From a virus: DNA of 53,650 bases. The DNA lies in IMG/VR virus record IMGVR_UViG_3300005518_000005; one strand, written 5' to 3'. Within the stretch, counting starts at the first letter, position 1; every line of letters starts with the position of its first letter. This document shows, piece by piece, positions 18,872 through 46,309 of the stretch. The position numbers and the translations under genes were made by a program. The notes beneath the pieces were generated by a model. It searched no databases and was not told where the DNA came from. It saw only the letters and a list, made by a program, of their open reading frames with translations.

Positions 18872-19230
18872 GCCGTGGAGACTCTGAAATGGAAGACTCG
18901 GGGCCGATGCCCCTTTCTCGCCGAGCGTCCGATCATCGCGGAGTCCACAAGTGGTTTCGCTTTGATCCGACGCTATCGACCGGTGCATTGCTGCAGACGG
19001 CGACGATTCTCGTCAGCGTGGGCACCTTCTACGGCGCGTACGTGCGCGACCAAACACAAGTGCGCGCCGACGTCACGCAGATCCAAGAAATCCAGAAGCG
19101 CGACCGCGCCGACGTGGAGAAGGTCGCCGAGCGACTCGGTGGGGATCTGAAAGAAATCAAGAACGACGTCAAGGAGGTGGGGCTCAAACTCGCCGAGATC
19201 CGCGGCCAACAGCAAGGTAGCAAGAAATGA
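18868..19230 (+). CDS. Membrane-anchored coiled-coil protein (i-spanin- or holin-associated type, hypothetical)
   Basis: ATGA overlap with the giant ORF stop. One TM segment (ALLQTATILVSVGTFYGAYV) is followed by a charged coiled-coil-like tail. Confidence 0.65.
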   Translation: MSRGDSEMEDSGPMPLSRRASDHRGVHKWFRFDPTLSTGALLQTATILVSVGTFYGAYVRDQTQVRADVTQIQEIQKRDRADVEKVAERLGGDLKEIKNDVKEVGLKLAEIRGQQQGSKK

Positions 19231-20645
19231 AACGCATCATCGCTTTCGCCGTCATGTGCCTGCTCGCGGGCGCGGCTCAGGCCGACACGACCTCGACGCC
19301 GATCAAGCTCGGCACCTACACGCTGATCCGCAGCGCGACCACCGTACAGACCGGGTTTGCGACGATCGATCTGTGCTACGCCGCCGGGGCCGTGGATGCC
19401 GAGGCGCGCAAGGCCAGCGCCAACTACCGCTGCCGGCAGGACTCGCAGTTCTCGGTGACCTACACCGCCCCGGTGCCGATCCCGCCGAACCCGTTCCCGA
19501 ACGGCGAGACGCAAACGGTACAGTGTGTCTCGCCCCAGACCGGAAGCTGGACGCAGACGCGGACCTACACTTGGAACGGCACCGCCTGGGTGGCGGGTGC
19601 GTGGACACCGACATCGGCCCCGGCCGGCGCCTGCACGACGCCGCCTCCGCCCACGGCCTGCGGCCCGACCAATCTGGCGGTCAAGATCGATTGCGCGAAG
19701 ATGCCGACCGCGACGTGGCAAGGCTGGGACAAGCCGATGTTCACGACGAACACGGTGTATCCCTCGGCGGGCGATGGCTCCGGCGCGTTCCGCACGACAT
19801 GCAAGTGGTCGCACATGGCGTTCGATGACCCTCTCGTTTACCCGAATCAGCCCGGCGCCTCGCACTTGCATACGTTCTTCGGCAACACGTTGACCAACGC
19901 CGCGTCGACCACCGCGTCGATCAGCGCCACCGGCAACAGCACGTGCAACGGCGGCACGATCAATCGCACGGGCTACTGGGTCCCGACGATGATCGACACG
20001 TTGGACGGTCGGCCGATCGGCGCGAACAACGATCAGTACGTCGGATCGCAGTTCTACTACAAGACCGGCTACACGCTGCCCGTGGCGCTGATCAAGCCGG
20101 CCCCGGCGGGGCTGCGCATGATCACGGGGGACTCGAAGGGCAATCCGACGAACCCGAGCCGGGTCGCCTCGTACCGCTGCATCAAGAACGGCGGCGCGAC
20201 GCAGGCCGACATCGGCAACGCGCAGAGCACGATCCCCTACTGCCAAGTGTCGGGCTACACCGTGATGCGTATGTCGATCACGTTCCCGCAGTGCTGGGAC
20301 GGTGTGAACCTCGACAGCCCGGATCACAAGAGCCACATGGCGAGCGCGGTCTACACGACCGGCAACCAACTCGGCTACTGCCCGACGACGCATCCGGTCG
20401 CGATCCCCGAGATCAGCTTCGAGGTCGAGTATCCCGTGCGCTCGACCGACGACACGCGGCGCTGGCGGTTGGCGAGCGACAACTACGACGTGACTCAGCC
20501 GGCGGGCTATTCGAGTCACGGGGATTGGATGATGGGGTGGGACGCTACGATCATGCAGACCTTCGTGTCAAAATGTCTCAACACCGCGAAAAACTGTGGA
20601 TCGACGCTGATTGGCGACGGTCGCGAGATGGTCGTGGTGCCCTGA
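19227..20645 (+). CDS. Secreted protein with a DUF1996-like core
   Basis: Sec-type signal peptide MKRIIAFAVMCLLAGAAQA/D. Motifs DDPLVYPNQPGASHLHTFFGN and STCNGGTINRTGYWVP match my recollection of DUF1996. Confidence 0.7.
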   Translation: MKRIIAFAVMCLLAGAAQADTTSTPIKLGTYTLIRSATTVQTGFATIDLCYAAGAVDAEARKASANYRCRQDSQFSVTYTAPVPIPPNPFPNGETQTVQCVSPQTGSWTQTRTYTWNGTAWVAGAWTPTSAPAGACTTPPPPTACGPTNLAVKIDCAKMPTATWQGWDKPMFTTNTVYPSAGDGSGAFRTTCKWSHMAFDDPLVYPNQPGASHLHTFFGNTLTNAASTTASISATGNSTCNGGTINRTGYWVPTMIDTLDGRPIGANNDQYVGSQFYYKTGYTLPVALIKPAPAGLRMITGDSKGNPTNPSRVASYRCIKNGGATQADIGNAQSTIPYCQVSGYTVMRMSITFPQCWDGVNLDSPDHKSHMASAVYTTGNQLGYCPTTHPVAIPEISFEVEYPVRSTDDTRRWRLASDNYDVTQPAGYSSHGDWMMGWDATIMQTFVSKCLNTAKNCGSTLIGDGREMVVVP

Positions 20646-22723: not shown

Positions 22724-22742
22724 GTCGTGCCACCAAGAGAAG

Positions 22743-22764
22743 GCCGCCCTCGGGGCGGCTTTTT
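22743..22764 (+). terminator. Rho-independent terminator at the convergence of the plus-strand late block and the minus-strand block
   Basis: GCCGCCC tcg GGGCGGC followed by TTTTT. The T-run abuts the stop of the minus-strand gene 22764..22943. Confidence 0.75.
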
Positions 22765-22943
22765 CATTTCTTCCGCAGGCCCTTGAGGGTCTGGGCGAGA
22801 CGCGCACGTTGACCTAGTTTTCCCGGTGCTTTCGCTGCTGCAGCAAGCTTCTGTTGTGGTATCTTCTTGCCTGCCGGAACGTCAAGTTCGGCTCTCAAGG
22901 CTCCGGGCTTTTTTATGGCGCCTTTAATCCAATTACCAGCCAT
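22764..22943 (-). CDS. Small basic protein (IKKPGALR.. type), hypothetical
   Basis: ATG 22943 with AGGAG upstream. The product is MAGNWIKGAIKKPGALRAELDVPAGKKIPQQKLAAAAKAPGKLGQRARLAQTLKGLRKK. Family assignment not verified. Confidence 0.6.
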   Translation of the reverse strand: MAGNWIKGAIKKPGALRAELDVPAGKKIPQQKLAAAAKAPGKLGQRARLAQTLKGLRKK

Positions 22944-23538
22944 GATGAAGCTCCTGTGCAAGTGCGGTTGCGGCGAATCTCCGAGATACCCCGGAGCGGC
23001 CTTTGTTCACGGGCATCATCTTAGGCTACCGGAGTACCAACGTAAACCGGGGCCGATAGCTTCCAAGACATGTCCTCGGTGCGCTGTTGAATTCAAACCG
23101 CCTCGAGAGAGGCCGCGCACGATGTTTTGCTCAGACGTGTGTGCCCGAAAGAACCAGACCGACCAAGGGACGGTGCTTCTAAACTGCGGCTTCTGCGCTG
23201 CGGCCTTTCGCATCTCCAAGCACCGAGCCAAAGATCGCCAAATACACCATTGCTCTGACGAGTGCCGGCGCGCTTCGGACATAGCGCGATACCGTGAAGG
23301 CATCGGCGCGTGGAACAACATCGCCGAGCAGCTAAAGCAGGACCGAGGCAACCGGTGCGAAGACTGCGGCTACGCAAAGCACGCTGCCATCCTCATTGCT
23401 CATCACTTGGACGGTGTGCACGGCATCAACAATCATCCGTCCAACTTACGTGTACTCTGCCCGACGTGTCACGCGGAACATCACTTAGCCCTAGGGAATC
23501 TGCGCCTCGGGCCTACAGCGCGTGCGCGCCGCATTTAA
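22942..23538 (+). CDS. HNH homing-type endonuclease with Cys-rich N-terminal region
   Basis: C-terminal CEDCGYAKHAAILIAHHLDGVHGINNHPSNLRVLCPTCHAEHH matches an HNH motif. Lower-GC island. Lone plus-strand gene among minus-strand genes. Confidence 0.75.
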   Translation: MMKLLCKCGCGESPRYPGAAFVHGHHLRLPEYQRKPGPIASKTCPRCAVEFKPPRERPRTMFCSDVCARKNQTDQGTVLLNCGFCAAAFRISKHRAKDRQIHHCSDECRRASDIARYREGIGAWNNIAEQLKQDRGNRCEDCGYAKHAAILIAHHLDGVHGINNHPSNLRVLCPTCHAEHHLALGNLRLGPTARARRI

Positions 23539-24239
23539 CCAGCGCGCACCGCCCGCCACTCAGCGTCGAACGAGCCGCCCTGCCAGCCGGGCAGCCACGG
23601 GCCACCGAGCGTCATGTGGGCGATGTGCATGGGCTGCGGCCGGGGCTGCACGTCCACGAGCCAGTTCCAACCCGGCTCAAGCGAGCCGATCTCGTCGTCA
23701 TGCAGCCAGTAGAAGCTTTGCAGCTCCCAAGCCGTGCGCTCGTTCACGTCGCGCAGGCTCAGGCGCCGATTCGCCGGGTGGTCGCAGTTGAACAGCATGA
23801 CGCTGCTCCAGTTCTTGCGCGGGTACGAGGTCTGCTGCTGGTCGACCATCTTCCGGCTCTCGACCGGCGTGTACGAGTGCTGCACGACCGACACCGCGGG
23901 GGCCGCCGTCAGAAAATCGGGGCCGATGAGCTCGCGCGGGTCGGAGTAGAACAGCATGTCCGCATCGACGAACATCGCCGGTCCCTCCTGCGCGAGCAGC
24001 GGCGTGAGGAATCGCGTGTACTTGAATGCGGTGCTGAACGTCTCGTTGCCGGTGAGGTCGTAGCCCTGACTGCTGCGCTTGTCCTGCGTGCGCCAGAAGA
24101 GGCCAGCGGCGCGCAGCCGCTCCTCGACGAGCAGCGTCGGCTCGAGGTCCGGTGCAACACGACGCAGCGACTTGATCGCGGCCACGACCGCGTCATAGTC
24201 CTTGGCGTCATAGCCGATGAAAATGCGGAAGGCGCTCAC
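23535..24239 (-). CDS. Glycosyltransferase, GT8-like (DxD)
   Basis: GTG 24239 overlaps the upstream TGA (GTGA). Contains ..AMFVDADMLFYSD.. (DxD). 234 aa. Confidence 0.6.
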   Translation of the reverse strand: MSAFRIFIGYDAKDYDAVVAAIKSLRRVAPDLEPTLLVEERLRAAGLFWRTQDKRSSQGYDLTGNETFSTAFKYTRFLTPLLAQEGPAMFVDADMLFYSDPRELIGPDFLTAAPAVSVVQHSYTPVESRKMVDQQQTSYPRKNWSSVMLFNCDHPANRRLSLRDVNERTAWELQSFYWLHDDEIGSLEPGWNWLVDVQPRPQPMHIAHMTLGGPWLPGWQGGSFDAEWRAVRAG

Positions 24240-24910
24240 GTCGCCACCATGATGTAGTCGCCTGAAATCTCCCCGACCGCCTTGTAGCCGAGGCCGATGA
24301 GGTACTTGACCGCCCCCAGCGGTTGCAAACCGAACTTCACTGGAAAATCGCGTTTCTGCTCGACGATGATCGATGGGCGCCACGTGACGATCGTCTCCTC
24401 GGCGCCGCGCAGCACGAACTCCTCGTAGCCTTCGCAGTCGATCTTCATCGCGTCGACTTCCGTGAACGCGAAGCTGTCGAGCGTACGCATCTCGACATCG
24501 CCCTTGCCCTGCACGAAGCTACCGCCTGTGCTGTACGGGTCGACCTTGATCGCGACCTTGCCGGCGCGATCGCCGAGTGCGTAGGGGTGCAGGTTCACCC
24601 CGCACGTGAAGTCACGATTCGGCGCTTCGATCACGTTCTTCACGAAGCACTCGCGATGGTCCGGCACCGGCTCGAACGCTTCCACGTGTTTGAAGTAGTG
24701 CGCGAAGTTGAAGGACCATGTCCCGACGTGCCCGCCGATGTCGATCACTGTGCGGCGGCGATCGAGGGGGCAATGGTCGAGAAAGCGCATCTGCTTTTTC
24801 CCTTGGTATGCCGCACGTCCGTTGAGCACCATGCGGTTCTTGGGGTCGACCATCCAGTCGATCAGATGTCGCTCGTGATCGGGCCACCACCAGCCATCGG
24901 CTTGTCGCAT
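24236..24910 (-). CDS. FkbM-family methyltransferase
   Basis: Motifs VIDIGGHVGTWS, AFEPVP, YALGDRAGKV, KIDCEGYEEFVLRGA and PSIIVE are typical of Methyltransf_21/FkbM. Confidence 0.75.
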   Translation of the reverse strand: MRQADGWWWPDHERHLIDWMVDPKNRMVLNGRAAYQGKKQMRFLDHCPLDRRRTVIDIGGHVGTWSFNFAHYFKHVEAFEPVPDHRECFVKNVIEAPNRDFTCGVNLHPYALGDRAGKVAIKVDPYSTGGSFVQGKGDVEMRTLDSFAFTEVDAMKIDCEGYEEFVLRGAEETIVTWRPSIIVEQKRDFPVKFGLQPLGAVKYLIGLGYKAVGEISGDYIMVAT

Positions 24911-25294
24911 TCAAAGCTCCTTGAGGTAATCGGCTTGCATCTTCATGATGCCCTCGAGCGAATGGTCTCCATCTGTGTGGAAGAAGTCGATCGACTCGTC
25001 CGGGAACAGCGCCGCGCCGTCGAGCGAGCGTGTGCGGTAGACCGTGACGTGCGGCTTGGTTTTCGCCCAGTCGATCACACCCTGCGCGATGCCGTCCATG
25101 TGCTTCTGGCCGAAGTTGCTGTAGTTGCCTTCCCACGAGTCGACAATGTATTGCGCTTGGATCGACGGGATCGTGGCGAACAGCTTCGATAGGTCTCCGG
25201 CGTACACGCCGACCTCGACGAGCACCTTCGGGTTGACGGAGGCGGCGAGCTTGCGCGTGGCTTCGCGGTAGGTGGCGGCGTTGCAGGGTTTCAA
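24911..25294 (-). CDS. Class I SAM methyltransferase fragment-like (Methyltransf_24/CmcI-like), start uncertain
   Basis: VLVEVGVYAGDLS and IDFFHTDGDHSLEG are present. The only coupled start is TTG 25294 (TTGA overlap). The product is short (127 aa) and seems C-terminally truncated. Confidence 0.5.
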   Translation of the reverse strand: MKPCNAATYREATRKLAASVNPKVLVEVGVYAGDLSKLFATIPSIQAQYIVDSWEGNYSNFGQKHMDGIAQGVIDWAKTKPHVTVYRTRSLDGAALFPDESIDFFHTDGDHSLEGIMKMQADYLKEL

Positions 25295-26031
25295 AGCAGT
25301 TTCTCCAAGGCTTCGTGGACTTCGGTGACGGTGATCGCTTCCATCGACGCGCGGCAGCCGGGACAGTTGATGCGACTGCCGCAAGGCTTGCCGGCGTGAC
25401 GGATGTTGACCATCGAGTCGTACCCGGTGATCTCGGGCGAGATGAACTCCGACCACAGCACAACAGCCGGCGTGCCGACCGCCGCGGCGCCGTGGTGCAG
25501 ACCTCCCTCGGTGCCGACGAACGCGCGCGCGACGCTGAGCACCGCGAGCGCGTGGCGGAAGGTGGGGGTGTGGACCTTGAGCACGTGCGCCGGCAGGCTC
25601 TGCTCCGGGCTGCTGACGCACTGCACGAAGTCGTCACGCGTCTTGCTCAACTCCAGCCAGCGCGTCGGCAGCCACGCCTTGTTGGCGTGGCCGTTGGCCT
25701 TGACGTTCGGCTCGATCATGACCTTGCCGCGGAACGGCTCGGCGAATGCGAGCTCCTCGGGCGTGAAGGCGATCTCCGCCGGGGATGGTCGGTAGGGGTT
25801 CCACGTCCACTTGTGCGACGTCTTGGCCCTGATGTAGGGCCGCGCGTGCGGTCCGTTGACCATGCGCAGCACCGGGCGGCCGGCGGCGCGGTGTACGATG
25901 TACGGCAAACCCTCCCACAGCGGCGACCAGCGGGGTCGCCCGTCGATGCCGACGATCAGCACCGGCAGACCGCTGTGTTTGTGCAGCTTGCGCGCGGCGC
26001 CGGAGGCAATCAGCTCGTCGCCCATTCCCAT
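25291..26031 (-). CDS. Glycosyltransferase family 9 (heptosyltransferase-like)
   Basis: Start is ATG 26031 (TGATG overlap). N-terminal MGMGDELIASGAARKL and C-terminal FVGTEGGLHHGAAAVGTPAVVLW match GT9 hallmarks. Confidence 0.7.
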   Translation of the reverse strand: MGMGDELIASGAARKLHKHSGLPVLIVGIDGRPRWSPLWEGLPYIVHRAAGRPVLRMVNGPHARPYIRAKTSHKWTWNPYRPSPAEIAFTPEELAFAEPFRGKVMIEPNVKANGHANKAWLPTRWLELSKTRDDFVQCVSSPEQSLPAHVLKVHTPTFRHALAVLSVARAFVGTEGGLHHGAAAVGTPAVVLWSEFISPEITGYDSMVNIRHAGKPCGSRINCPGCRASMEAITVTEVHEALEKLL

Positions 26032-26549
26032 CAGGGCGTCTCCACGAGATAGATGGTGACTCCCGTGACGGCGTGCCTGTCGAACGTATCGAGCCACCAT
26101 TGCATCGGCTGGATCGTGACGTGCAGGTTCGTGTCAGTGCCAGGGAACGTCTTCTTGGCCGGCCGGCAGCACACGCTCGCCCAGAGGAACCCGCCGGGCT
26201 TGACGTGGCTGTAAAGAGTCTTCACGAACTCGTCGACCGCGTCCTCGGGGATGTGCTCGAGCACATCGCTGCACAGCACCGCGTCGAACTTGCCGTGCGG
26301 CTTTTCGTCGTGCGCGCTGAACGCGGGGTCGTACAGTGTCACGTCGAACCAACGCAAGCCCCAGTCACGGTGGATCTTGTGCTGGTTCCGGTAGGCGTCA
26401 CCCGCGCCGCAGCCATAGTCGAGCACACGCTTGACGCTGTACTGGCGCATCAGCTTCTTGAGCTGGTCGCGGTGCTGGAGCAAAGAGAGACCGCGGAACT
26501 GATCTCCGCCTGCGGCCATCTCTCGATAGAGCGGCGTGAGGTCGGTCAC
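26031..26549 (-). CDS. Class I SAM-dependent methyltransferase
   Basis: GTG 26549 in a GTGA overlap. VLDYGCGAGD (motif I), VLCSDVLEHIP and VKPGGFLW are present. Confidence 0.8.
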   Translation of the reverse strand: MTDLTPLYREMAAGGDQFRGLSLLQHRDQLKKLMRQYSVKRVLDYGCGAGDAYRNQHKIHRDWGLRWFDVTLYDPAFSAHDEKPHGKFDAVLCSDVLEHIPEDAVDEFVKTLYSHVKPGGFLWASVCCRPAKKTFPGTDTNLHVTIQPMQWWLDTFDRHAVTGVTIYLVETP

Positions 26550-27112
26550 GGCTTGACCCTTTCCCAGTACCCCACCCACTCATCGAAGTGCCCGGTCGTC
26601 ACGCGGCCGAGCACGAAGCCGAGGCTCTCCATCACGCGGTCGATGTGGTGCGGTACGTTGAGCGAGCGCTCGTCGATGATCGTCGGGGCGAACTTCGGCG
26701 GCAGGCGCAGCACGACGAGCTCACGCGCCGCGGCAGCCAGCCGGCGGCATGCTGCGCTCGGGTCGCGCAGCTTGTGCAGCAGCGCCAACGCGATCACGAT
26801 GTCGTACTCGCGCACCGGCTTGTAGACGTTCGCGTCCGCGACCTCCAGCGTCACGGCGCGCGGGCCGCGCAGCTTGTTGCCCACCGCCACGTGCTCGATC
26901 ACGATCTCCAGGCCGTGCACAGCCTTGGCGCCCGCGTCGAACAGGTGCATGCCGATCAGGCCCTCGGCCGCGCCGACGTCGAGCACCGTCTTGCCGGGCA
27001 CGCGCTCGATCAGGTGGTCGAGGCCCTTGAGCTGGTCCTCGAGCCGCCGATCCCCGGGGCGCCCCGGGGTCGAGAACCATCCGCGTCTTACTTGCTGTTG
27101 AGTGCTGCCCAC
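26546..27112 (-). CDS. Class I SAM-dependent methyltransferase
   Basis: VLDVGAAEGLIG (motif I) and YDIVIALALLHKL are present. GTG 27112 overlaps the upstream gene by 25 nt, so the start is uncertain. Confidence 0.65.
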   Translation of the reverse strand: MGSTQQQVRRGWFSTPGRPGDRRLEDQLKGLDHLIERVPGKTVLDVGAAEGLIGMHLFDAGAKAVHGLEIVIEHVAVGNKLRGPRAVTLEVADANVYKPVREYDIVIALALLHKLRDPSAACRRLAAAARELVVLRLPPKFAPTIIDERSLNVPHHIDRVMESLGFVLGRVTTGHFDEWVGYWERVKP

Positions 27113-27831
27113 GCTTTGCCGCTCCTGAATTCCTCGAGGGTGAATTGGTGGTCCGCCAAGACCTCCGCGAATTGTCGCCGCTCGGCGATGCTCGCGATCT
27201 GCGGGTCGAGCACATTTCCTTGATGGAACTCGCCGCCGATCCAGTGCGCCGCCGCCGTGTCGCTGACGCTGATCGCCGGGACACCTTCGAGCAGCGCCGT
27301 GATCGCCGCAGCCGAGGAGTACGTCACGACCAGCCGGGCGCGCGAGAGCAGCGCCGCGAAGGCCTCGCCGCGGGCAATCTTGTCACGCTGCCACGGGTGC
27401 ACGTGGACGTACGGGCAGCCCATGCCTTCGAGCCGGCGCGCGGTGACGGCGGCCCAGTCACCGACGTAGCCGGTCGACTTCATGAATTGGTCGGACTGAG
27501 GCACGACGATCGTCAGGCTGCCGGGCACCATGCGCTCACGCACGGGAATGCCGAGCTTCGCGAAGCGCTTGCCGTCGCTGGCCTTGTCGCGCGGATCGGC
27601 CTGCAGCGCGTTCTTTGTGACGCGGAAGTAGAGACCGCGGTGCTTGTCGAAGTAGCTGTTGTCGCAAAAGTACCAAGGTTCGCCGCTGAGTTTTGCTTTG
27701 CGGAAAGCTTCCATCTGACCTTCCACCCCGAAAAACACTGCACCTTTGGCGTCGGGATGGGCGCCCGCTGCGAATGCGCGACATATCAGGTCGCTTTTCG
27801 CTTTGGCGGGAATCGGATAGCACTTCAGCAT
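27088..27831 (-). CDS. GT-B-type glycosyltransferase, capsule KpsS/KpsC-like (putative)
   Basis: Start is ATG 27831 (MLKCYPIP..). LTIVVPQSDQ, VHVHPWQRD and TYSSAAAITALLEGVPAI resemble Capsule_synth-type signatures (from memory). Confidence 0.5.
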   Translation of the reverse strand: MLKCYPIPAKAKSDLICRAFAAGAHPDAKGAVFFGVEGQMEAFRKAKLSGEPWYFCDNSYFDKHRGLYFRVTKNALQADPRDKASDGKRFAKLGIPVRERMVPGSLTIVVPQSDQFMKSTGYVGDWAAVTARRLEGMGCPYVHVHPWQRDKIARGEAFAALLSRARLVVTYSSAAAITALLEGVPAISVSDTAAAHWIGGEFHQGNVLDPQIASIAERRQFAEVLADHQFTLEEFRSGKAWAALNSK

Positions 27832-28022
27832 TGCGTGGCCTTTCGTGCTTTCGCGCCTTTCATGCGCTCGCGCATCTCGGCTGCGAGTTTCGGGTCTGAC
27901 CAAATCCGCGTCATGCGCGCCGAGGCAGCTGCGCGAGCTTGTGGGCTGCGAGCGGCGTTGAGCATCAACTCTCGTCGAGCCGCCATCTGCGCGGGGTCGC
28001 TTGCGTAACGCTTCAGCGCCAT
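27825..28022 (-). CDS. Small Arg/Ala-rich helical protein (65 aa)
   Basis: ATG 28022. It overlaps both neighbours (10 nt upstream, 7 nt downstream), which suggests translational coupling. Confidence 0.5.
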   Translation of the reverse strand: MALKRYASDPAQMAARRELMLNAARSPQARAAASARMTRIWSDPKLAAEMRERMKGAKARKATQC

Positions 28023-28819
28023 GTCGGCATCTCCAAGCGGTGCGTGAGGAGCCGGGCGAAGGGCTCGCCGCTGGCAATTTCCTCGTGGTGCCACTGCCCA
28101 TGCGCCATGTGCTGCAGCGCTACCAGCCGGGCTGCGTCGTCACGCTTGGCGACGGTGAACTTACTGAATAACGCCGCACCCTCGGCGCAAATCCAATGCG
28201 GCGCGGCGTACCAGACCGGCACGCCCTCGACGAGCGCGCGCACGCCGATCGCGCTTGACCAGATCACGCACGCGTCGGCATTCTTGAGCGCCGCGGCGTC
28301 CAGCGTGAACTTGTTCTTGTCGCCGGGGTGGGGGATGAGTCGCACGGGCTTGTTGCCGACCCAGCCCCGAATCTGCGCCGCGGCTTTGCGCCCCCATGCC
28401 GGCGGGCTTGCCATCAGCTTCGAGCCGATGCCGCGCTGCTCGCGGATCACGATCTCGCGACCGTGCTCGCCGACCGGGCGCCACGGCTTGACCTCGAAGC
28501 CCAGCCTCGCGAAGCGGTCCTCGTCGCCGACCGGAAAATAGCCCGACCCGTTGTGGCCGTGCACGCTGATCGCGTAATAGGTCTTGTCGGTCTTCGCGAG
28601 GTACCCGTTCTCCGCGATCACGACCGTCCCGCCGGCACGTTCCCAGGCGTCGGCGCGGTTCTCGTCGCTGCCGGCTTTCTTGTTCCAGAGGACCAAGAAG
28701 TCGCCGGGGCTTTGCGGCCGAGCGTCTTGCGTGAGCGTGAACCCGACGCGCTTCAAGCCCTGCTCGAACGCAGCGCGGCGGTAGACCGGCTCCTTGCGAA
28801 TCTCGAGGACGGCTCTCAC
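28013..28819 (-). CDS. GT-B-type glycosyltransferase, capsule KpsS/KpsC-like (putative)
   Basis: GTG 28819 in a GTGA overlap. KPVRLIPHPGDKN and IWSSAIGVRALVEGVPV are present. It looks like a paralogue of 27088..27831. Confidence 0.5.
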   Translation of the reverse strand: MRAVLEIRKEPVYRRAAFEQGLKRVGFTLTQDARPQSPGDFLVLWNKKAGSDENRADAWERAGGTVVIAENGYLAKTDKTYYAISVHGHNGSGYFPVGDEDRFARLGFEVKPWRPVGEHGREIVIREQRGIGSKLMASPPAWGRKAAAQIRGWVGNKPVRLIPHPGDKNKFTLDAAALKNADACVIWSSAIGVRALVEGVPVWYAAPHWICAEGAALFSKFTVAKRDDAARLVALQHMAHGQWHHEEIASGEPFARLLTHRLEMPTWR

Positions 28820-29400
28820 AACACGTCCTCCAGCTTGACCCGCGGCCAGCAGTGCAGCGCCGTGGTCGTTGTTGCGTTGAGCACCTCACACCCGGCATTC
28901 GCGAGATCGGTCGCAAACCGCGTGCTCTTGTGCAGCCACTCGTCGAAGGTCTGCGCCTGCACCATCGGTTTCGGATGATCGGGGTGGTGATGCCGCTCGC
29001 CGTTCGGGCCCAGACCCATGTCGAATCCGAGGAGCACGATCCGGCGGTAGCCGAAGAAGAACGCGAGGTTGATCGCCTGCATGCCGCTGTTGCCGTTCAG
29101 ATGAATCTTGCCGTCGCGGCCGAGGCCTTCGCGGTTCGCCCCGCGCACACGCTTGAGCTTCGGCCAGCGCGCGCAGCTCGTCGCGTCCTGCGTCCAGACC
29201 TCGCCCTTGAACGTGCGCACGATGTCGGCCATGTAGGTCTTCCCAAAAAGGTAGTCCCCGAAATACAAAATATCGGCTGTAGGCGCCTTCTGGTAGGTCG
29301 CGTTCACGACGATCGTCTTGTGCTTGCTTGCCAAAGCCTTATCGATCTGGTCTTGCGTGAGGCTCGGACCGCTTGCAAGGATGATGGCGGTCGGCTTCAT
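28816..29400 (-). CDS. DUF115 / MAF_flag10-like (MptE-like) putative glycosyltransferase
   Basis: MKPTAIILASGPSL.., IVVNATY.., LNGNSGMQAINLAFFFGYRRIVLLGFDM. ATGA overlap with the upstream HEG stop. Confidence 0.55.
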   Translation of the reverse strand: MKPTAIILASGPSLTQDQIDKALASKHKTIVVNATYQKAPTADILYFGDYLFGKTYMADIVRTFKGEVWTQDATSCARWPKLKRVRGANREGLGRDGKIHLNGNSGMQAINLAFFFGYRRIVLLGFDMGLGPNGERHHHPDHPKPMVQAQTFDEWLHKSTRFATDLANAGCEVLNATTTTALHCWPRVKLEDVL

Positions 29401-29969
29401 GCGTGCGTGAAGAACTTAGTTTCGCCCGCTTTCCGGGCCTTGATGGCTGCGGTTAATGTTGCGTGGCGCCCGAGGTGCCGTCGCTTGCCTTCGTGGTTCA
29501 GGTAGGCTTGCCAAAGCCCGCGCGTAGCGTCGAAGTGAACACCCTTCACGCCGCTTTTGCTGTGCTTACGTACGGCTACGTTCTCCGCGTTCTGCTTGTG
29601 CGTAGCGGGGCGCAGATTAAGCCATCTGTTGTTCGTTTTGTCGCGGTCTTCGTGGTCAACCTCGTCTTTCGGCCACTTCCCTGTCATGTAGAACCAAGCA
29701 AGACGATGCGCTAATTGAGGCTTCGCGTCGACGTTGATTTGCCAGTAACCCTTGTTATGACGGCTACCGGCAGGCTTATCGAGCCGACGCTTCTTGGCAC
29801 GTTCAAGCCACCAGAACAACCCCGTTTCAGGGTCGTACCGAAGCGCTTCCAGAAGTCGACGGTGCGTCAGCACATTGGTACCTTCTTTGTGACCGCTCGC
29901 GAGTGCAACGTCGATCTGTGCCTGCGTCAGGCTGGGGCCACTCGCGAGGACGACTGCCGTGGGTTTCAT
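29397..29969 (-). CDS. HNH-AP2 homing endonuclease fused to a diverged copy of the neighbour N-terminus (start ATG 29969; alternative TTG 30005)
   Basis: DHEDRDKTNNRWLNLRPATHKQNAEN matches HNH_3. GVHFDATRGLWQAYLNHEGKRRHLGRHATLTAAIKAR matches AP2. The first 28 aa, MKPTAVVLASGPSLTQAQIDVALASGHK, mirror the start of 28816..29400. Confidence 0.7.
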   Translation of the reverse strand: MKPTAVVLASGPSLTQAQIDVALASGHKEGTNVLTHRRLLEALRYDPETGLFWWLERAKKRRLDKPAGSRHNKGYWQINVDAKPQLAHRLAWFYMTGKWPKDEVDHEDRDKTNNRWLNLRPATHKQNAENVAVRKHSKSGVKGVHFDATRGLWQAYLNHEGKRRHLGRHATLTAAIKARKAGETKFFTHA

Positions 29970-29982
29970 CGCGGCGATGGTA

Positions 29983-30477
29983 TCAGTTGTTACCTCCGCC
30001 AGCAAGGTAGTCTTTGTGCGGGATCTTCTTGCCGCGCACGTTGAAGCCCCAGCCTTGGCGGTAGGGACCCGTGATGAACAGCGTCCAGCAGTCCTTGCCC
30101 GGCGGCAAGTCCAAGCGATGCCACGAGCCGGCCGGACGGTAGAGAACCGATCCGGGGCCGTGCCAGCGACGCGAGACGCACAGGCCCTCGGCGTCGTAGC
30201 GCTCCTCCCAGTACCCGCCGAACAGCACGACGGTCAGATACGGCCACGGGTGGTCGTGGGGATCGCGCCCGTGATCGCTGCGCAGGATCTGGTGGATGCG
30301 TGCGGCGATGCCGCAGAACTGGAGCAGCTTGGCGATCGGGCGCCTCCGCGGCATGGGGCCGCACCCAGCACCGAGCTGAGCATTCCGATACGGCACCAGC
30401 CAAAAGCGCTGCATGTATCCGTCCAAGTGAAAGTACGGTGTGCGCTGCGCGCGGCGGATCAGGTACTCGCGGATCAT
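29983..30477 (-). CDS. Hypothetical protein (164 aa, HDHPW motif)
   Basis: ATGA overlap with the helicase stop. YMQRFWLVP.. and RSDHGRDPHDHPWPYLTVVLFGGYWEE are present. A recurrent phage family of unknown function. Confidence 0.7.
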   Translation of the reverse strand: MIREYLIRRAQRTPYFHLDGYMQRFWLVPYRNAQLGAGCGPMPRRRPIAKLLQFCGIAARIHQILRSDHGRDPHDHPWPYLTVVLFGGYWEERYDAEGLCVSRRWHGPGSVLYRPAGSWHRLDLPPGKDCWTLFITGPYRQGWGFNVRGKKIPHKDYLAGGGNN

Positions 30478-31916
30478 GCCTCTACCCCTCGTTTCGTCGC
30501 CTCTATCAGAAGATCTTGCACACTGCGCTTGGTCTCGTGGCGCAACAGCACCAGCTCATCGATCGTGCCCTTAGCGACGATGTCGTACACCCACACCGGC
30601 CGCTCAAGCCCGGCCTGCATCTGGCGCGTCGGGCCGATGCGCTCGATCGCCTGCTGACGCAGCTCCAGATCCCAAGATGTGTTGAAGAACACCGCAATGT
30701 TCGTCACATGCTGGAAGCCGTCGATGCCGTGGCCCGCGCTCTTGGGGTGGGCCAAGAGCATGTCGATCTTGCCTGCCTTGAAATCGTCCTCATCCTGTTC
30801 GCTCTTGAGCACGCGCGCCTTGGGGAACAGTTTTTGGATGCGAGGTACGTCGCTCTTGAAGCTATAAAACACGAGCAGCGGCATACCCTCAGCCTCCTCG
30901 ACGATGCTCGCCAACGCCTCAAGCTTGGCGTCATGCACGACCTTGTAGGCGCGGGCGCGCGGGTCCTCGTCGTTGAGGACGTCAGGGTCTAGGTACGCCG
31001 CGCCGCCGGCAAGCTGCAAGAGCTTGGTCGACTTGGAGGCGGCGTTGAACGCCTCGATCTCGTGGTTCTCCAAGCGGATGAAGAAGTCACGCTCCATTTG
31101 CCGATAGAGCTTCATCGCCGGCTCAGGCAACTCGACCTCGATCACGCGCTTGATCGGGTCCTTGAGGTCGAACCAGTCCCGCGCGTCGATCGATAGGCAG
31201 AGATCCTTGACGAGGTCGTGGATCTCGGTATGCGCGTTCGGCAGAATGATCGGCTGGATGTGAGTCTTGTGCGCATTCACCGCGTCACGCACACGCTTGA
31301 ACGCGAACCAGCGGTTCTCGAACGACTCGTAGGTCAGTCCCAGCCGCTTGCCTCGGTCCAGGAAATAGAGCTGGCCCCAGAGTCCCTTGAGGCCGTTGGG
31401 CGACGGCGTGCCGGTAAGCTCGATGAAGTGCCGGATGCGGTCGTGCCACGCGAGCTCGTGCAGTGCGCGGGTCATTGCGCCGCCCTGCTTGACGCGGAAG
31501 GCGTGCAGCTTGCGTGACTCGTCGGAGATGACCGTGCGGAACGGCATGTACCCGGCGTGCTTCAGGTAGGTTATGAGCCAAGGCACAACGTCGTAGTTCA
31601 TGCTGTAGATGTGCGCCGGCCGCTTGAGCGCGGCCTCTCGCTCGGCCTGGGTGCCCACGACCCGGCTGATCTCCAGATGCGCCGTGTGGTGCCACTTGCG
31701 GGTTTCATCGCTCCAGACTTTGCGCGCCACGCGCAGTGGCCCGAGCGCGAGTGCCGGCCACGCGTCACCGCGGAGCATGTCGATCTGGTCGAGCGCCGTC
31801 AGAGTCATGGAGGTCTTCCCAAGCCCCATGCCAGCCCACAGCGCGCAGCGCCGATGCTCGACGATGTGGTCGATGCCGAGCGGCTGCCACGGCCTGGGGT
31901 GGTATGCCTGAGTCAT
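30474..31916 (-). CDS. SNF2-family DNA helicase
   Basis: LWAGMGLGKT (motif I), VISDESRKLHAF (motif II) and LLAHPKSAGHGIDGFQ (helicase C) are present. 480 aa. Confidence 0.85.
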   Translation of the reverse strand: MTQAYHPRPWQPLGIDHIVEHRRCALWAGMGLGKTSMTLTALDQIDMLRGDAWPALALGPLRVARKVWSDETRKWHHTAHLEISRVVGTQAEREAALKRPAHIYSMNYDVVPWLITYLKHAGYMPFRTVISDESRKLHAFRVKQGGAMTRALHELAWHDRIRHFIELTGTPSPNGLKGLWGQLYFLDRGKRLGLTYESFENRWFAFKRVRDAVNAHKTHIQPIILPNAHTEIHDLVKDLCLSIDARDWFDLKDPIKRVIEVELPEPAMKLYRQMERDFFIRLENHEIEAFNAASKSTKLLQLAGGAAYLDPDVLNDEDPRARAYKVVHDAKLEALASIVEEAEGMPLLVFYSFKSDVPRIQKLFPKARVLKSEQDEDDFKAGKIDMLLAHPKSAGHGIDGFQHVTNIAVFFNTSWDLELRQQAIERIGPTRQMQAGLERPVWVYDIVAKGTIDELVLLRHETKRSVQDLLIEATKRGVEA

Positions 31917-36100: not shown

Positions 36101-36245
36101 GCTCCTCGTCATCGATCGCCCAAGCGAACAGGATGATCTCGGCGCGCTCGGCGTACTTCGCCACGCCGTTCTTGATCGGCTCGGGGCTCCGGGTCTCGGT
36201 GTCCAACCACAGGTTCACAGATTTCTCGCTTGCCACAAGTGCCAC
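33135..36245 (-). CDS. Family A DNA polymerase with 3'-5' exonuclease domain, interrupted by an intein (precursor 1036 aa)
   Basis: LDTET (Exo I), VVADLANIEGR (motif A), ERQIGKVEELMLQYGGG (motif B) and TLTIHDEIV (motif C) are present. The extein junction is FEN / CTQAVACD. Confidence 0.93.
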   Translation of the reverse strand: MALVASEKSVNLWLDTETRSPEPIKNGVAKYAERAEIILFAWAIDDEEPHVLDRLLGPLDWPKRLRDALHNPDCLVWFQNAWFDWNVLETDPDPSMRYICEIVPLERRRDTMVQAYLHGLPGALEALCAALGVVDEKAKDKRGRALIQRFCVPNKAGGFNRPEGFPEDWEEFKRYAGKDIIAMRECHRRMPKWNNTPKQWALWALDQKINRRGICVDVELARAAVEASEKAKATLARRTQALTNGEVERATQRDQLIAHILETYGIDLPDMTSATLERRIKDEALPDELRELLAVRLESATGSVSKFKTLLRSVNTDGRLRGTMQFRGAARTGRVAHRLFQPGNMPRPTLSKELILIAIDAIKHDYVDLIFDDTMQACSNCIRGTLIPGTGKKLVVADLANIEGRFAAWLAGEEWKLQAFRDYDSGEGFDLYILAYARSFGVEPADVPKKGNERQIGKVEELMLQYGGGVGAFITGAATYSIDLAQMTEQVYDKLPEWALTEAKKFLGWLYEDAEEAFLLGKIDEEACERRKLKARLGLAEKTFVACDAIKRLWRHAHPEISTYWKELEETIRYCIANPGEVCPARKVKMKVSGRWLRIGLPSGRELCYPGVGLDVVEEDPETGRKRTYPGISYKGHNQYSRKWSRISTYGGKIFENCIAEGTEVLTERGWFPIETISPQLRVWDGEEWVTHKGCVYRGKRHTLSAFNVEMTPEHRVLTTEGWQRASSCERHQRAPCRLPFSYSVYRQQRATLLVGSQMPMWPNDRDGRERAAETAEQERQSLLQMLALRDDRAEEHEARHVSSSSLCGVAVAAGALPQPQAPGVLTLRGPWDSCLRQVATVVRRLLGRHGTDVRPRLDDRAIEQQSRLHPKQLHLGDAQSASVEYASKPMARNTARAHDGSAGGGHFRGQEDHAALPARPRVAAEESPRLVFDLIDCGPRSRFVVRGSDGIPLIVHNCTQAVACDQLLEPIEAIEAAGFETTLTIHDEIVSEADADRDDLNAEKLGAMMCADLLWNRGLPLAAAGYETTGPYRKD
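33372..34274 (-). mobile_element. Intein (301 codons) in the DNA polymerase
   Basis: It starts CIAEGTEVLTERGW (block A), contains TPEHRVLT (block B) and ends GSDGIPLIVHN, followed by the +1 Cys. Length is an exact multiple of 3. Lower GC than the flanks. Confidence 0.85.
33440..34072 (-). CDS. Free-standing-type HNH homing endonuclease nested in the intein, in a different frame from the polymerase
   Basis: GTG start with GAAGG upstream. DISGLRVGYLSAIRY, CQCG, SCRC, YSRYGGRGIRVCAKW, GLTIERSNNSRGYTPSNCIWVTRKAQASNTR and a C-terminal HTH-like tail are present. Frame offset from the polymerase is 1. Confidence 0.8.
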   Translation of the reverse strand: MHHRAKDISGLRVGYLSAIRYTGSNGRRSLWEVKCQCGRTIEMAASELLKLQNKSVKASCRCLRFVTIGQKNTKHGMSAHPAYAVWRSLLARCHNPKHPAYSRYGGRGIRVCAKWQRSFDAFWADMGLTYVHGLTIERSNNSRGYTPSNCIWVTRKAQASNTRANRWLGTPRGRMTAAQAADTFGVKRTTLLYRLDHGWPLRKALGLSST

Positions 36246-39174: not shown

Positions 39175-39377
39175 CAACGGTCCTTCAAAACGTCGACTGC
39201 TTCGGCATTGAAGAGTCGGAAGATGAGCAGGGCGTAGAGCAGTGCCATCAGCGTGTAGACGGTACCGAACATCCACAGGGGCGCGTCGAAGCGCTCGAGG
39301 ATCAGCCACCAGACGAACGGCGCTGACAGACTGATGCGCGGCGGCATGTTGGCGCCTTTGATGTATCGATCGCGCAT
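39174..39377 (-). CDS. Small membrane protein (67 aa)
   Basis: ATG 39377 in a TGATG overlap with GGAGG upstream. Two hydrophobic segments. Confidence 0.6.
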   Translation of the reverse strand: MRDRYIKGANMPPRISLSAPFVWWLILERFDAPLWMFGTVYTLMALLYALLIFRLFNAEAVDVLKDR

Positions 39378-46267: not shown

Positions 46268-46291
46268 GATGGTTTCCTTTGGCGGGTTGCG

Positions 46292-46309
46292 AGGTAGCAA
46301 TTGCTACCT
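46292..46309. promoter_or_regulatory. Operator-like palindrome, copy 3 (AGGTAGCAATTGCTACCT, perfect 18-bp)
   Basis: A perfect palindrome 25 nt upstream of ATG 46267, in the AT-richer divergent region 46268-46387. Confidence 0.6.

Follow-up and report, generated by a model that had tools for sequence, protein, structure and literature searches.

The gene cassette

The window, by which we mean the whole 53.6-kb stretch of DNA analysed, comes from an uncultured phage of lytic type and carries a ten-gene operon on the minus strand (23535–29400), whose products are sugar- and methyl-transferring enzymes. The refined gene models, numbered in order of transcription (g1 to g10), are listed in Table 1 with the neighbouring features. 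The ten genes are connected by ATGA, GTGA, TTGA or TGATG junctions or by longer overlaps, the third-position GC of their frames is 0.75–0.92, and no convincing terminator was found within the cassette. Genes for an SNF2 helicase and a DNA polymerase precede it, and it lies with the replication genes of this phage, not with the structural genes; a strong terminator stands at the meeting point of two convergent operons, the structural and the replication/glycan one. An initial annotation, made from sequence alone, had described ten coupled minus-strand genes following the replication module: all are present where it had placed them, and nearly all of its enzyme assignments survive profile and structure searches.

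Table 1. Features of the cassette and its surroundings, in order of transcription of the minus strand. The junction is that with the preceding gene.
Feature	Coordinates	Strand	Junction	Description
DNA polymerase	33135-36245			replication gene
SNF2 helicase	30474-31916			replication gene
Cupin	29983-30477	-		164 aa, adjoins the cassette upstream
HNH homing endonuclease	29397-30005	-		between the cupin gene and g1; likely start ATG at 29969
g1	28816-29400	-	ATGA	194 aa, minimal DUF115 / MptE-like, first cassette gene
g2	28013-28819	-	GTGA	268 aa, folded like the retaining beta-Kdo transferases (KpsC, WbbB, KrkA)
g3	27825-28022	-	overlap 10 nt	65 aa, basic, helical ORF
g4	27088-27831	-	overlap 7 nt	247 aa, g2 paralogue, active-site motifs more divergent
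g5	26546-27112	-	overlap 25 nt	188 aa, class I SAM-dependent methyltransferase
g6	26031-26549	-	GTGA	172 aa, class I SAM-dependent methyltransferase
g7	25291-26031	-	TGATG	246 aa, GT9 heptosyltransferase-like
g8	24911-25294	-	TTGA	127 aa, Methyltransf_24 (CmcI/TylF-type) remnant
g9	24236-24910	-	TGA, then ATG immediately	224 aa, FkbM-family methyltransferase
g10	23535-24239	-	GTGA	234 aa, putative DxD nucleotide-sugar transferase, weak GT8/GT77 signals
Second HNH endonuclease	22867-23538	+		antisense to the operon, abuts the g10 end
Bidirectional intrinsic terminator	22737-22765			13-bp stem, 8 G-C pairs, T runs on both strands

Both HNH genes are missing from the closest relative, L016. The upstream one matches PHROG 99 (HNH endonuclease) at 2.9e-61, and alignment of the two copies reveals its 5' end to be a duplicate of the 5' end of g1; the second matches PHROG 1271 (4e-21). 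The product of the cupin gene matches PHROG 4786 ('cysteine dioxygenase') at 5.9e-40, with no match in Pfam and only a weak cupin match in the PDB. The gene lies 5' of g1 in four of 37 relatives and may be an accessory gene of the cassette.

Glycosyltransferase-like proteins

Five products resemble glycosyltransferases: g1 (DUF115), g2 and g4 (KpsC fold), g7 (GT9-like) and g10 (DxD). The DUF115/MAF-like assignment first given to g1 is borne out by a match to PHROG 4603 ('alpha-2,3-sialyltransferase') at 8e-40 and by PF01973, which is precomputed for many of its 282 homologues; g1 itself scores 22.7 bits against Pfam MptE-like, under the cut-off of 34.6. PF01973 is the central domain of Maf and has a sialyltransferase-like topology; Maf/DUF115 enzymes O-glycosylate Ser/Thr residues of flagellin and can use CMP-Kdo as donor (bioRxiv 10.1101/2020.06.03.131540). 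In Foldseek, the AF2 model of g1 (pLDDT 90.6) matches a thiamin pyrophosphokinase best (4e-4); two human sialyltransferases, ST8SiaIII and ST6GALNAC2, come next (probabilities 0.85–0.96). The top match, and the naming of the Pfam family after the archaeal pterin pyrophosphokinase MptE, suggest an alternative that concerns the role of g1 only: a pyrophosphokinase-type enzyme (MptE / thiamin pyrophosphokinase) that activates or phosphorylates a pathway intermediate, in which case a different enzyme would begin the chain. The sialyltransferase matches, the topology of PF01973 and the strict linkage of g1 to two CMP-sugar-type transferases make this quite unlikely. We regard g1, present in 36 of the 37 distinct well-covered relatives, as a candidate CMP-ulosonic-acid transferase.

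Sequence searches of Pfam, PHROG, NCBIfam and the PDB returned no match to g2. In contrast, the 27 highest-ranking PDB fold matches of its AF2 model (pLDDT 93.7) are without exception KpsC, WbbB or KrkA (E 5.6e-6 to 3.5e-4); further fold matches are Tetraselmis virus 1 proteins named 'capsule polysaccharide biosynthesis'. Invariant residues are Q128, G132, H164, P165, S189 and E70; the Gln and His-Pro (CMP/donor-binding) motifs, as defined for retaining Kdo transferases (PMC12887879, PMC9587256), have the same spacing as in E. coli KpsC and KpsS. Its paralogue g4 (BLASTP 2e-9) is thus another KpsC-like module; g4 weakly matches DUF6716 ('putative glycosyltransferase'), occurs in 35 of the 37 relatives, and has a CcrColossus orthologue (K4JVV7) that is itself a fold match of the g2 model. 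The g4 family keeps D57-N58 and Q112-S113; at the His position most relatives have Arg. The original KpsS/KpsC-like call therefore holds for the fold, but not for family membership: in retaining Kdo transferases the nucleophile is the Asp of QxxxD, whereas g2 has Gly at that position. We rejected g2 and g4 as members of the Kdo-transferase families, which they resemble; lacking the Asp nucleophile, their chemistry, and even their donor, is uncertain.

That g7 is GT9 heptosyltransferase-like, as proposed at the outset, is confirmed among solved structures: its family profile matches only WaaF (2.6e-6), WaaC (2.4e-4) and one 'Glycosyl transferase family 9' chain in the PDB. The protein itself scores 20.4 bits against Pfam Glyco_transf_9 (cut-off 22) and 2.3e-5 against TIGR02195 (heptosyltransferase II). 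Its chain is shorter than those of WaaC and WaaF, and three conserved Cys cluster close to the C-terminus (C217, C223 and C226, conserved along with G4-D5, E175-G176 and H180); g7 was found in 30 of the 37 relatives.

The last gene, g10, is present in 33 of these relatives, and its product matches PHROG 28018 at 2.5e-44. Its family is very large, with more than 7390 homologue clusters, none carrying a Pfam domain; weak matches to Nucleotid_trans are seen in 22 of 32 members and to Glyco_transf_8 in 11 of 32, and the CcrColossus counterpart bears the annotation nucleotide-diphospho-sugar transferase. Of the earlier description as a GT8-like DxD transferase, the DxD is invariant (D92 and D94, together with H208, G212 and G213), but the GT8 signal is weak.

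Methyltransferases and the small ORF

The profile matches agree with the two class I SAM methyltransferases, the FkbM enzyme and the truncated CmcI-like protein initially reported; g5, g6 and g9 are predicted to be working SAM methyltransferases. The match of g5 to Methyltransf_11 (23.7 bits, cut-off 21.2) is accompanied by several other methyltransferase families just under their cut-offs and by weak matches to UbiG and BchM. g6 matches Methyltransf_23 (57.4 bits, 1.9e-15) and PHROG 24759 (methyltransferase, 6e-24) and has orthologues in giant Caulobacter phages; g9 matches Methyltransf_21 (58 bits, cut-off 22.7) and TIGR01444 (84.7 bits, cut-off 37.7). Among the 37 relatives, g5 and g9 each occur in 31 and g6 in 27. 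g8 matches Methyltransf_24 (27.9 bits) and aligns to residues 3–129 of a 169-aa orthologue in relative L003; immediately downstream of it the window lacks 838 bp found in L016 and 1471 bp found in L017. A deletion has cut g8 down to a methyltransferase remnant.

The small protein g3 (15 Lys or Arg among 65 residues) has a weak TetR_C_31 profile match only and a BLAST counterpart in just one of the 37 relatives; it is probably not an enzyme or other component of the pathway. Its slot is often filled in relatives by unrelated small ORFs.

Conservation and missing functions

The cassette is no oddity of one phage. A core of eight genes (g1, g2, g4, g5, g6, g7, g9 and g10) occurs with unchanged gene order in about 40 well-covered contigs of phages (37 distinct well-covered loci were used for the presence counts). 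Giant Caulobacter phages have six cassette orthologues, placed directly behind the genes for distal tail proteins and ahead of that for the endolysin; the tail protein gene of CcrColossus shares its last base with the start of the g1 orthologue. The cassette is a mobile module, conserved among phages. Relatives carry genes for a DegT aminotransferase, an NDP-sugar C-methyltransferase, a UDP-galactopyranose mutase, a radical SAM enzyme, a sulfotransferase and TylF, and such sugar-tailoring genes mark the module as a diversifying glycan pathway. Within the cassette of other relatives sits a gene for a KdoO-like Fe/2OG Kdo hydroxylase: all three members match PF11004 (best 1.4e-6), the best PDB match is KdoO, and the HxD and distal His align. 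This gene is an independent pointer to Kdo and backs the ulosonic-acid donor originally guessed.

Searches of Pfam, PHROG and NCBIfam with most of the larger ORFs of the window and selected small ones returned no nucleotide-sugar synthesis gene, and no well-coding ORF has more than two hydrophobic segments, which means no flippase, polymerase or permease. The lack of sugar-activation and export genes noted before is thus real for the window; relatives do carry sugar-nucleotide tailoring genes. The suggestion that the sugars come from host donor pools fits the content of the window.

Proposed pathway and acceptor

The cassette is very probably a conserved phage-borne glycan-building module. Transcribed together with the replication genes, and with its own genes coupled in translation, it would supply soluble enzymes that use host activated sugars in the host cytoplasm. 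CMP-Kdo or a related CMP-ulosonic acid would be the likely donor for g1, g2 and g4, ADP-heptose for g7 and UDP-hexose for g10; to this donor set of Kdo, heptose and hexose we give an even chance. The product is probably a methylated, LPS-inner-core-like sugar chain, the oligosaccharide being assembled and then O-methylated.

Given that no exporter is encoded, the acceptor must be within cytoplasmic reach. If it were phage DNA, the glycan would shield the genome against nucleases of the host. In recently described phage clusters, 5-hydroxymethylcytosine (5hmC) carries hexose, HexNAc, heptose or Kdo, and LPS-related phage glycosyltransferases, including GT8-like ones, make mono- to trisaccharides on 5hmC with heptose and probably Kdo (bioRxiv 10.1101/2023.12.21.572611). 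The cassette ends the replication operon, and its diversifying accessory genes are also compatible with an arms race against restriction systems. The source of the acceptor hydroxyl is missing, however: scans of the window found no C5-cytosine methyltransferase, TET/5mYOX dioxygenase or dCMP/dUMP hydroxymethylase, and the upstream cupin, absent from most relatives, has an HxH cupin motif and not the TET-type HxD...H. The fold of g2 does not match T4 beta-GT, JGT or TarP, the cassette methyltransferases belong to types that O-methylate small molecules or sugars (FkbM, TylF/CmcI-like, Methyltransf_23), and the cassette of giant Caulobacter phages occupies the tail-lysis region. We consider DNA the least likely acceptor, and a highly improbable one.

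Alternatively, the acceptor may be a glycolipid of the host envelope, altered by the enzymes on the cytoplasmic side of the inner membrane and then exported by host transporters; candidates are the nascent LPS core (Kdo2-lipid A), the phosphatidylglycerol-Kdo capsule anchor and an undecaprenyl-linked O-antigen or capsule chain. Receptors would then be masked, superinfection blocked and progeny not lost on cell debris. Use of host MsbA/Lpt or ABC transporters would make a phage exporter unnecessary, and transfer of the cassette between unrelated phage types, with no common structural protein at BLAST level, suits an acceptor supplied by the host. In ABC-transporter-dependent O-antigens, moreover, beta-Kdo and methyl groups are chain-terminating caps (WbbB, WbdD), which favours a glycolipid. 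Yet it is typically temperate phages that convert the host surface and this phage looks strictly lytic (scans of the window found no integrase), the ten cassette proteins are devoid of hydrophobic segments and of any obvious membrane anchor, and the late tail-lysis location in giant phages leaves little time to export a modified envelope. Also against a glycolipid, g2 occurred only on phage-sized MAG contigs and in no isolate genome in one limited GTDB scan with three peptide patterns. A glycolipid acceptor is, on balance, somewhat unlikely.

Our tentative preference, ahead of both glycolipid and DNA, is a virion protein. It would be glycosylated before or during assembly, with g1 beginning the chain on Ser/Thr in the manner of Maf on flagellin, and the glycan would shield or change the particle surface. 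The position of the cassette beside tail genes in giant Caulobacter phages argues for a virion protein, as does the lack of a membrane protein or exporter in the window. Against it, the cassette of the window lies beside replication genes, and BLAST reveals no virion protein common to this phage and the CcrColossus structural region, so a common co-evolved protein acceptor is not evident. The best fold match of g1 is, in addition, a pyrophosphokinase and not a transferase.

Comparison with known systems bears on the same choice. Maf proteins have flanking domains that g1 lacks, which also counts against a virion protein. The nearest characterised relatives of g2 and g4 (KpsC, KpsS, WbbB and KrkA; PMC12887879, PMC9587256), of g7 (WaaC and WaaF) and of the KdoO-like enzyme (KdoO) all act on lipid-linked glycan substrates, not proteins, which favours a host glycolipid over a virion protein. 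We class the cassette as an uncharacterised form of virus-encoded glycosylation.

Genome context and organisation of the cassette

Two public contigs (53,493 and 53,731 bp) encode cassette proteins identical to those of the window; given the similar size, the window represents essentially a whole phage genome, with a GC-content of about 65%. Head, internal-virion, portal/adaptor and terminase genes lie on the plus strand, and the minus strand carries a replication block of primase-helicase, two exonuclease ORFs, a gp2.5-like SSB, DNA polymerase A and an SNF2 helicase; no integrase was seen among the scanned ORFs of the window. TerL and the DNA polymerase share at most 44–49% identity with those of any cultured phage, which marks the lineage as uncultured, and a nucleotide search of cultured phages returned no relative of the window except for a 64-bp patch in CcrPW.

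Gene-model refinement showed that all ten minus-strand genes of the cassette (g1 to g10, numbered in transcription order) are real. With start codons picked according to junctions and ribosome-site context, neighbouring genes all either overlap or abut directly: from the junction between the upstream HNH gene and g1 onward the series reads ATGA, GTGA, 10 nt, 7 nt, 25 nt, GTGA, TGATG, TTGA, TGA-ATG and GTGA. The reading frames have a high third-position GC-content, no convincing terminator was found within the cassette, and a strong bidirectional terminator ends both of the converging operons. The ten coupled genes described in the initial annotation are thereby borne out. Its statement that genes for sugar activation and export are lacking is correct for this genome: no sugar-activating enzyme was found among the scanned ORFs (most of the larger and selected small ORFs of the window), and hydrophobic segments number at most two in any protein of the window. 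Overall, what that annotation observed stands; what it made of the observation is supported in part only. The idea that g3, a 65-aa helical protein, is what remains of a DNA-binding repeat from a homing endonuclease found no support in any family match.

In the window the cassette is flanked by two mobile endonuclease genes, one upstream of g1 and one beyond g10. The first ~28 codons of the upstream HNH gene duplicate the 5' end of g1. This fused copy matches almost exactly the beginning of g1 in a relative that is free of the HNH gene, and the window's working g1 start differs from it mostly at third codon positions, together with a few amino-acid changes. The arrangement resembles that of a homing endonuclease equipped with a copy of its own target that resists cleavage. 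HNH genes also occur between g1 and g2 in three related loci (L017, L026 and L050).

Several features outside the cassette deserve mention. DNA polymerase A has a weak endonuclease match near residues 682–727, its counterpart in APSE-1 is annotated as polymerase plus HNH endonuclease, and the window gene possibly contains an inserted endonuclease or intein-like element. The two exonuclease ORFs match consecutive parts of one family, and the counterpart in locus L007 (DUF2800) is a single 467-aa gene, so that the window gene is split or frameshifted; in L003 it is similarly split (85 + 375 aa). The 1633-aa virion-module protein shows weak matches to ParB-like nuclease and GNAT acetyltransferase domains, resembling large polyvalent ejected proteins, and its L007 counterpart carries Pfam LPD38. 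The DUF1996 protein, whose gene in L003 comes before one for a GH108 endolysin, may belong to the tail or take part in receptor binding. A DUF932 gene also occurs in E. coli CFT073, where it neighbours an antirestriction protein gene near the kps locus (L074:8993-10351).

Features of the window discussed in the text. L003, L007 and L016 are compared loci, L016 being the closest relative.
Feature	Position	Strand	Remarks
1633-aa virion-module protein	13970-18871	+	Rich in Ala, Gly, Pro, Glu
Last large gene of structural operon	19227-20645	+	DUF1996 (2.6e-45)
Bidirectional terminator	22737-22765		Ends both converging operons
Second HNH endonuclease	22867-23538	+	Antisense to glycan operon; between g10 end and terminator; absent from L016
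Cassette, g1 to g10	23535-29400	-	
g8	24911-25294	-	Methyltransf_24 gene, 3' end removed
g8/g9 junction	24943-24944		Site of deletion relative to L016 and L017
5' end of g1, duplicated in HNH gene	29318-29404	-	Compared with L016:6548-6645
HNH endonuclease gene upstream of g1	29397-30005	-	Insertion relative to L016
DNA polymerase A	33135-36245	-	1036 aa vs ~745 aa in L003 and L007
Exonuclease-family ORF	37714-38487	-	PHROG 69 positions 297-482
Adjacent exonuclease-family ORF	38542-39309	-	PHROG 69 positions 84-283
DUF932 protein	45278-46300	-	9e-53; between primase and terminase genes

The cassette is a conserved and mobile phage module

Scans with a few peptide patterns recovered 58 loci from the viral collection and eight from the genome collection. 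All eight of the latter lie on MAG contigs in the size range of phages (up to about 50–58 kb); these few patterns matched no isolate genome. Relatives share the same-strand order g1-g2-g4-g5-g6-g7-g9-g10, usually directly after a ~480-aa SNF2 helicase gene. Across 37 distinct well-covered loci, g1 was present in 36, g4 in 35, g10 in 33, g5 and g9 in 31 each, g7 in 30 and g6 in 27; g8 was found in five, an upstream cupin in four and g3 in one. The cupin had been considered as a TET-like or sugar-modifying enzyme, an idea that was dropped: Pfam gave no match, and the similarity to cupins is weak and generic.

Among cultured phages, protein searches place g2 homologues in giant Caulobacter phages only (for example CcrColossus, CcrPW, CcrSC, CcrBL9 and BL47), and g10 homologues in these and a few others. 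In both of the giant genomes inspected, CcrColossus and CcrSC, the distal tail protein genes are followed by a block of six orthologues (g1, g2, g4, g10, g6 and g7), and the endolysin gene comes after it; in CcrColossus the g1 orthologue starts on the final base of the tail protein gene. The cassette is, then, a conserved, mobile phage module. No published study of it was found in the literature on CcrColossus, CcrSC or sialyltransferase.

g2 and g4 have a Kdo-transferase fold and lack the catalytic aspartate

For g1, g2, g4 and g10, sequence searches of the PDB with single sequences or profiles gave chance-level matches only, and fold comparison was the sole informative PDB approach. g2 has no match in Pfam (Capsule_synth included), PHROG, NCBIfam or, by sequence, the PDB, and its family profile recovered no Kdo transferase from the PDB at E-values up to 10. 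Its model (pLDDT 93.7) adopts the modified GT-B fold of the retaining beta-Kdo transferases KpsC (GT107), KpsS, WbbB (GT99) and KrkA (GT140): the first 27 PDB fold ranks are occupied by KpsC, WbbB and KrkA only (E 5.6e-6 to 3.5e-4; TM 0.37–0.55), at a sequence identity of 10–14%. Matches among viral models were 'capsule polysaccharide biosynthesis' proteins of Tetraselmis virus 1 and the CcrColossus g4 orthologue. g4 is a paralogue of g2 (BLASTP 2e-9) and shares the fold through that relationship. The occurrence of g2 and g4 as separate paralogous modules is reminiscent of KpsC, which has two GT107 modules; unlike KpsC, KpsS, WbbB and KrkA, however, they are single modules of 250–270 aa and are encoded by phages. 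The family comprises 578 clusters.

Kdo transferases are defined by a QxxxD motif, in which the Asp is the covalent nucleophile and absolutely conserved, and by a CMP-binding (K/R)xHP motif (PMC12887879; PMC9587256). In KpsC and KpsS of E. coli CFT073 the former reads Q156xxxD160, Q484xxxD488 and Q233xxxD237, each in the strand-Gln setting also seen in g2, with HP 38, 38 and 42 residues on. Neither g2 nor g4 has the Asp nucleophile: the g2 region reads Q128-R-G-I-G132-S133, with Gly taking the Asp position across the family (at least 90% of 51 members), and in g4 (Q112-S-D-Q-F116) the position is taken by Phe116, with a semi-conserved Asp at +2; across the g4 family Gln-Ser is conserved and the Asp position is non-acidic. 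As in the retaining beta-Kdo transferases, g2 has a carboxylate-binding Gln just behind the opening strand of the C-terminal domain, the His-Pro pair of the CMP-binding motif and a Ser-rich phosphate-binding turn. The HP lies 36 residues after the Gln (37–42 in WbbB, KrkA, KpsC and KpsS); H164-P165 is invariant and aligns with KpsC H194-P195, with Ile in place of Lys/Arg two residues before. The g4 of the window has H145-P146, the His position being mostly Arg in g4 relatives. hhalign pairs the HP and Ser-Ser turn of g2 with those of KpsC, at a probability (2.9% for KpsC-N, 14% for KpsS) that lends no statistical support.

We conclude that g2 and g4 share the fold and, in part, the donor-binding elements of the Kdo-transferase class but fail its defining catalytic feature, and because the catalytic Asp is missing we treat them as a separate family. 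Of the earlier description of both as KpsS/KpsC-like, the fold therefore survives and the family membership does not. An (E/D)-N-x-Y motif contains the invariant Glu70 of g2 (Asp57 in g4), a residue that may serve as catalytic base.

The remaining enzymes

g1 matches PHROG 4603 at 8e-40. Its own score for Pfam MptE-like/DUF115 (PF01973) is 22.7 bits, under the cut-off of 34.6, but among its 282 homologue clusters many, at 45–65% identity, carry precomputed PF01973 assignments, which fits the DUF115/MAF-like call of the initial annotation. The best Foldseek match of the g1 model (pLDDT 90.6) is thiamin pyrophosphokinase (4e-4), followed by the human sialyltransferases ST8SiaIII (3.9e-3, probability 0.96) and ST6GALNAC2 (probability 0.85); the Maf structure 5MU5 is absent from the best 50 matches. 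Maf flagellin nonulosonic-acid transferases use CMP-linked ulosonic acids, including CMP-Kdo, as donors and modify Ser/Thr in the cytoplasm (bioRxiv 10.1101/2020.06.03.131540). Like these, g1 probably belongs to the PF01973/DUF115 superfamily, and its model resembles sialyltransferases at second rank. Unlike Maf, it is a bare single DUF115 domain of 194 aa that lacks the flanking N- and C-terminal domains; it scores under the Pfam cut-off, has a pyrophosphokinase as its best fold match, and neither the window nor related loci yielded a flagellin gene.

The GT9 heptosyltransferase-like character of g7 is supported by its family profile, which matches only GT9 structures in the PDB: WaaF 1psw (2.6e-6), WaaC (2.4e-4) and the GT9 chain 3tov. 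g7 matches TIGR02195 at 2.3e-5, reaches 20.4 bits against a Pfam cut-off of 22, and has an orthologue in L003 that carries PF01075. The similarity lies in the C-terminal donor-binding domain, which aligns with that of WaaC/WaaF including the K-x-W-P and (D/E)-x-G-x-x-H-x-A-A-A-x-G-x-P regions. Near the N-terminus, where GT9 enzymes carry a catalytic Asp, at least 90% of a 39-member family set conserve G4-D5; the pair is not flagged in a 24-sequence alignment (A4) and aligns with a GD of WaaF at a non-significant level. Unlike WaaC/WaaF, of about 320–350 aa, g7 is 246 aa long, and the family's conserved cluster C217/C223/C226 near the C-terminus has no aligned Cys in WaaF. The three Cys may form a metal site. 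They had also suggested TibC/Aah-type protein heptosyltransferases as relatives; these are absent from the profile-search matches.

g10 belongs to a very large, unannotated family (more than 7390 clusters). The DxD motif ascribed to it, of the kind that binds metal and nucleotide sugar, is real, D92 and D94 being invariant in 32 sequences; GT77/GT8 signals are weak, with Nucleotid_trans matched by 22 of the 32 relatives (best 0.002) and Glyco_transf_8 by 11 (best 0.011). g10 itself has no Pfam match, and its family profile has none in the PDB.

Among the methyltransferases, g9 is an FkbM enzyme as proposed, with scores above both curated cut-offs (PF05050 58 bits against 22.7; TIGR01444 84.7 bits against 37.7). 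Of the two genes proposed to encode class I methyltransferases, g6 is clear and g5 a marginal match. g8, annotated as a truncated CmcI-like methyltransferase, is indeed a fragment. At the g8/g9 junction the window is shorter than L016 by 838 bp and shorter than L017 by 1471 bp, and this deletion truncated g8 by removing the 3' end of a Methyltransf_24 gene. The leftover ORF still abuts g9 exactly (TGA then ATG).

Accessory genes and the case for Kdo

The segment missing from the window includes, as present in L017, a gene for a KdoO-like hydroxylase. This family occurs between g8 and g9 in four relatives (L003, L017, L060 and L061), a slot that is the exact site of the window's deletion. All three distinct members match Pfam Kdo_hydroxy (best 1.4e-6); the best PDB match of the family profile is KdoO, with the HxD and distal His aligned and invariant. 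Further ORFs within the cassettes of relatives encode a DegT-type sugar aminotransferase (6e-81), an NDP-sugar C-methyltransferase, a UDP-galactopyranose mutase (9e-24), a radical SAM/SPASM enzyme, a sulfotransferase and a TylF O-methyltransferase. These accessory genes lead us to view the module as a glycan pathway that diversifies in the way that surface-polysaccharide loci do. Through the KdoO-like gene they also offer independent, if indirect, support for Kdo as a constituent of the glycan.

A proposed pathway and its acceptor

In the pathway that we propose, g1 would open the chain by adding an ulosonic acid; g2 and g4, distinct modules like the halves of KpsC, would attach further Kdo-type residues in two linkages; g7 would add heptose and g10 hexose; and g5, g6 and g9 would O-methylate the product. 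All donors would come from host pools such as any LPS-making Gram-negative host holds.

The acceptor is possibly a virion protein, a reading that we favor while placing it somewhat short of an even chance. We count in its favor the position of the cassette in the giant phages and its coupling there to tail genes, the precedent of protein O-glycosylation and CMP-Kdo acceptance among DUF115/Maf proteins, the absence of exporters, and the virion glycosylation shown experimentally in mycobacteriophages and giant algal viruses. No shared acceptor emerged: the 1633-aa virion protein of the window is unrelated to the 1665-aa tail protein that adjoins the CcrColossus cassette, and in the examined CcrColossus and CcrSC regions no window ORF found a match besides the cassette genes and one antisense artefact.

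The placement among late tail and lysis genes in the giant phages speaks against a second reading, in which the glycan is added to a host envelope glycolipid, as do the lytic lifestyle and the lack of membrane-association features. The characterised relatives of g2/g4, g7 and KdoO nonetheless all act on lipid-linked glycans, and the phage types among which the module moves have no structural protein in common; we regard a glycolipid acceptor as rather unlikely. Phage DNA as acceptor is very improbable. Phage DNA glycan clusters are defined by a cytosine C5-methyltransferase and a TET-like dioxygenase (Pyle et al., bioRxiv 2023.12.21.572611); neither of these, nor a pyrimidine hydroxymethylase, was found among the scanned ORFs of the window, and g2 is unlike DNA glycosyltransferases.

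Returning to the virion protein, the fullest form of our proposal is that widespread lytic phages decorate their own virion proteins with a methylated, Kdo-containing, LPS-core-like glycan, built by a previously unrecognised Asp-less KpsC-fold family; the loss of the Asp nucleophile would imply a different mechanism, probably inverting and forming alpha-Kdo linkages. Taken as a whole this is a speculative proposition, and one that we consider quite unlikely to hold in every part. We know of no phage for which Kdo-based protein glycosylation has been established.

Significance and comparison with known systems

Glycosylation by viruses has to date been demonstrated on mycobacteriophage virions, in giant algal viruses and on phage DNA. 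If a Kdo/heptose-type glycan is made in the cytoplasm of the infected cell, virus-encoded glycosylation would extend to uncultured environmental podophages and giant Caulobacter phages. Glycans on the phage-particle surface influence recognition and stability, and remodelling of the host surface influences superinfection, both of relevance to ecology and therapy. At least two uncharacterised enzyme families are defined here, g2/g4 and g10, and the former bears on the link between the unusual double-displacement Kdo transferases and inverting sialyltransferase-like ancestors. The cassette is testable in cultured carriers: CcrColossus, CcrSC, CcrBL9 and CcrPW all grow on Caulobacter CB15.

The virion cassettes of mycobacteriophages and the PBCV-1-type machinery of algal viruses employ virus-encoded glycosyltransferases and methyltransferases in the host cytoplasm, drawing on host donor pools. 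The present cassette would work likewise, and it resembles them in being exporter-free and in the variability of its putative glycans, but its enzymes are from other families and resemble those of the LPS core and the capsule anchor. The DNA clusters of Pyle et al. (bioRxiv 2023.12.21.572611) are similar in that phage glycosyltransferases related to LPS enzymes use host sugar pools to build multi-step glycans, there including heptose and probably Kdo; their glycosyltransferases, unlike g2, resemble T4 beta-GT, JGT or TarP. As a kind of system, virus-encoded glycosylation using host donors is thus already known; what is new is the enzyme set, the nucleophile-less KpsC-fold family and the breadth of distribution.
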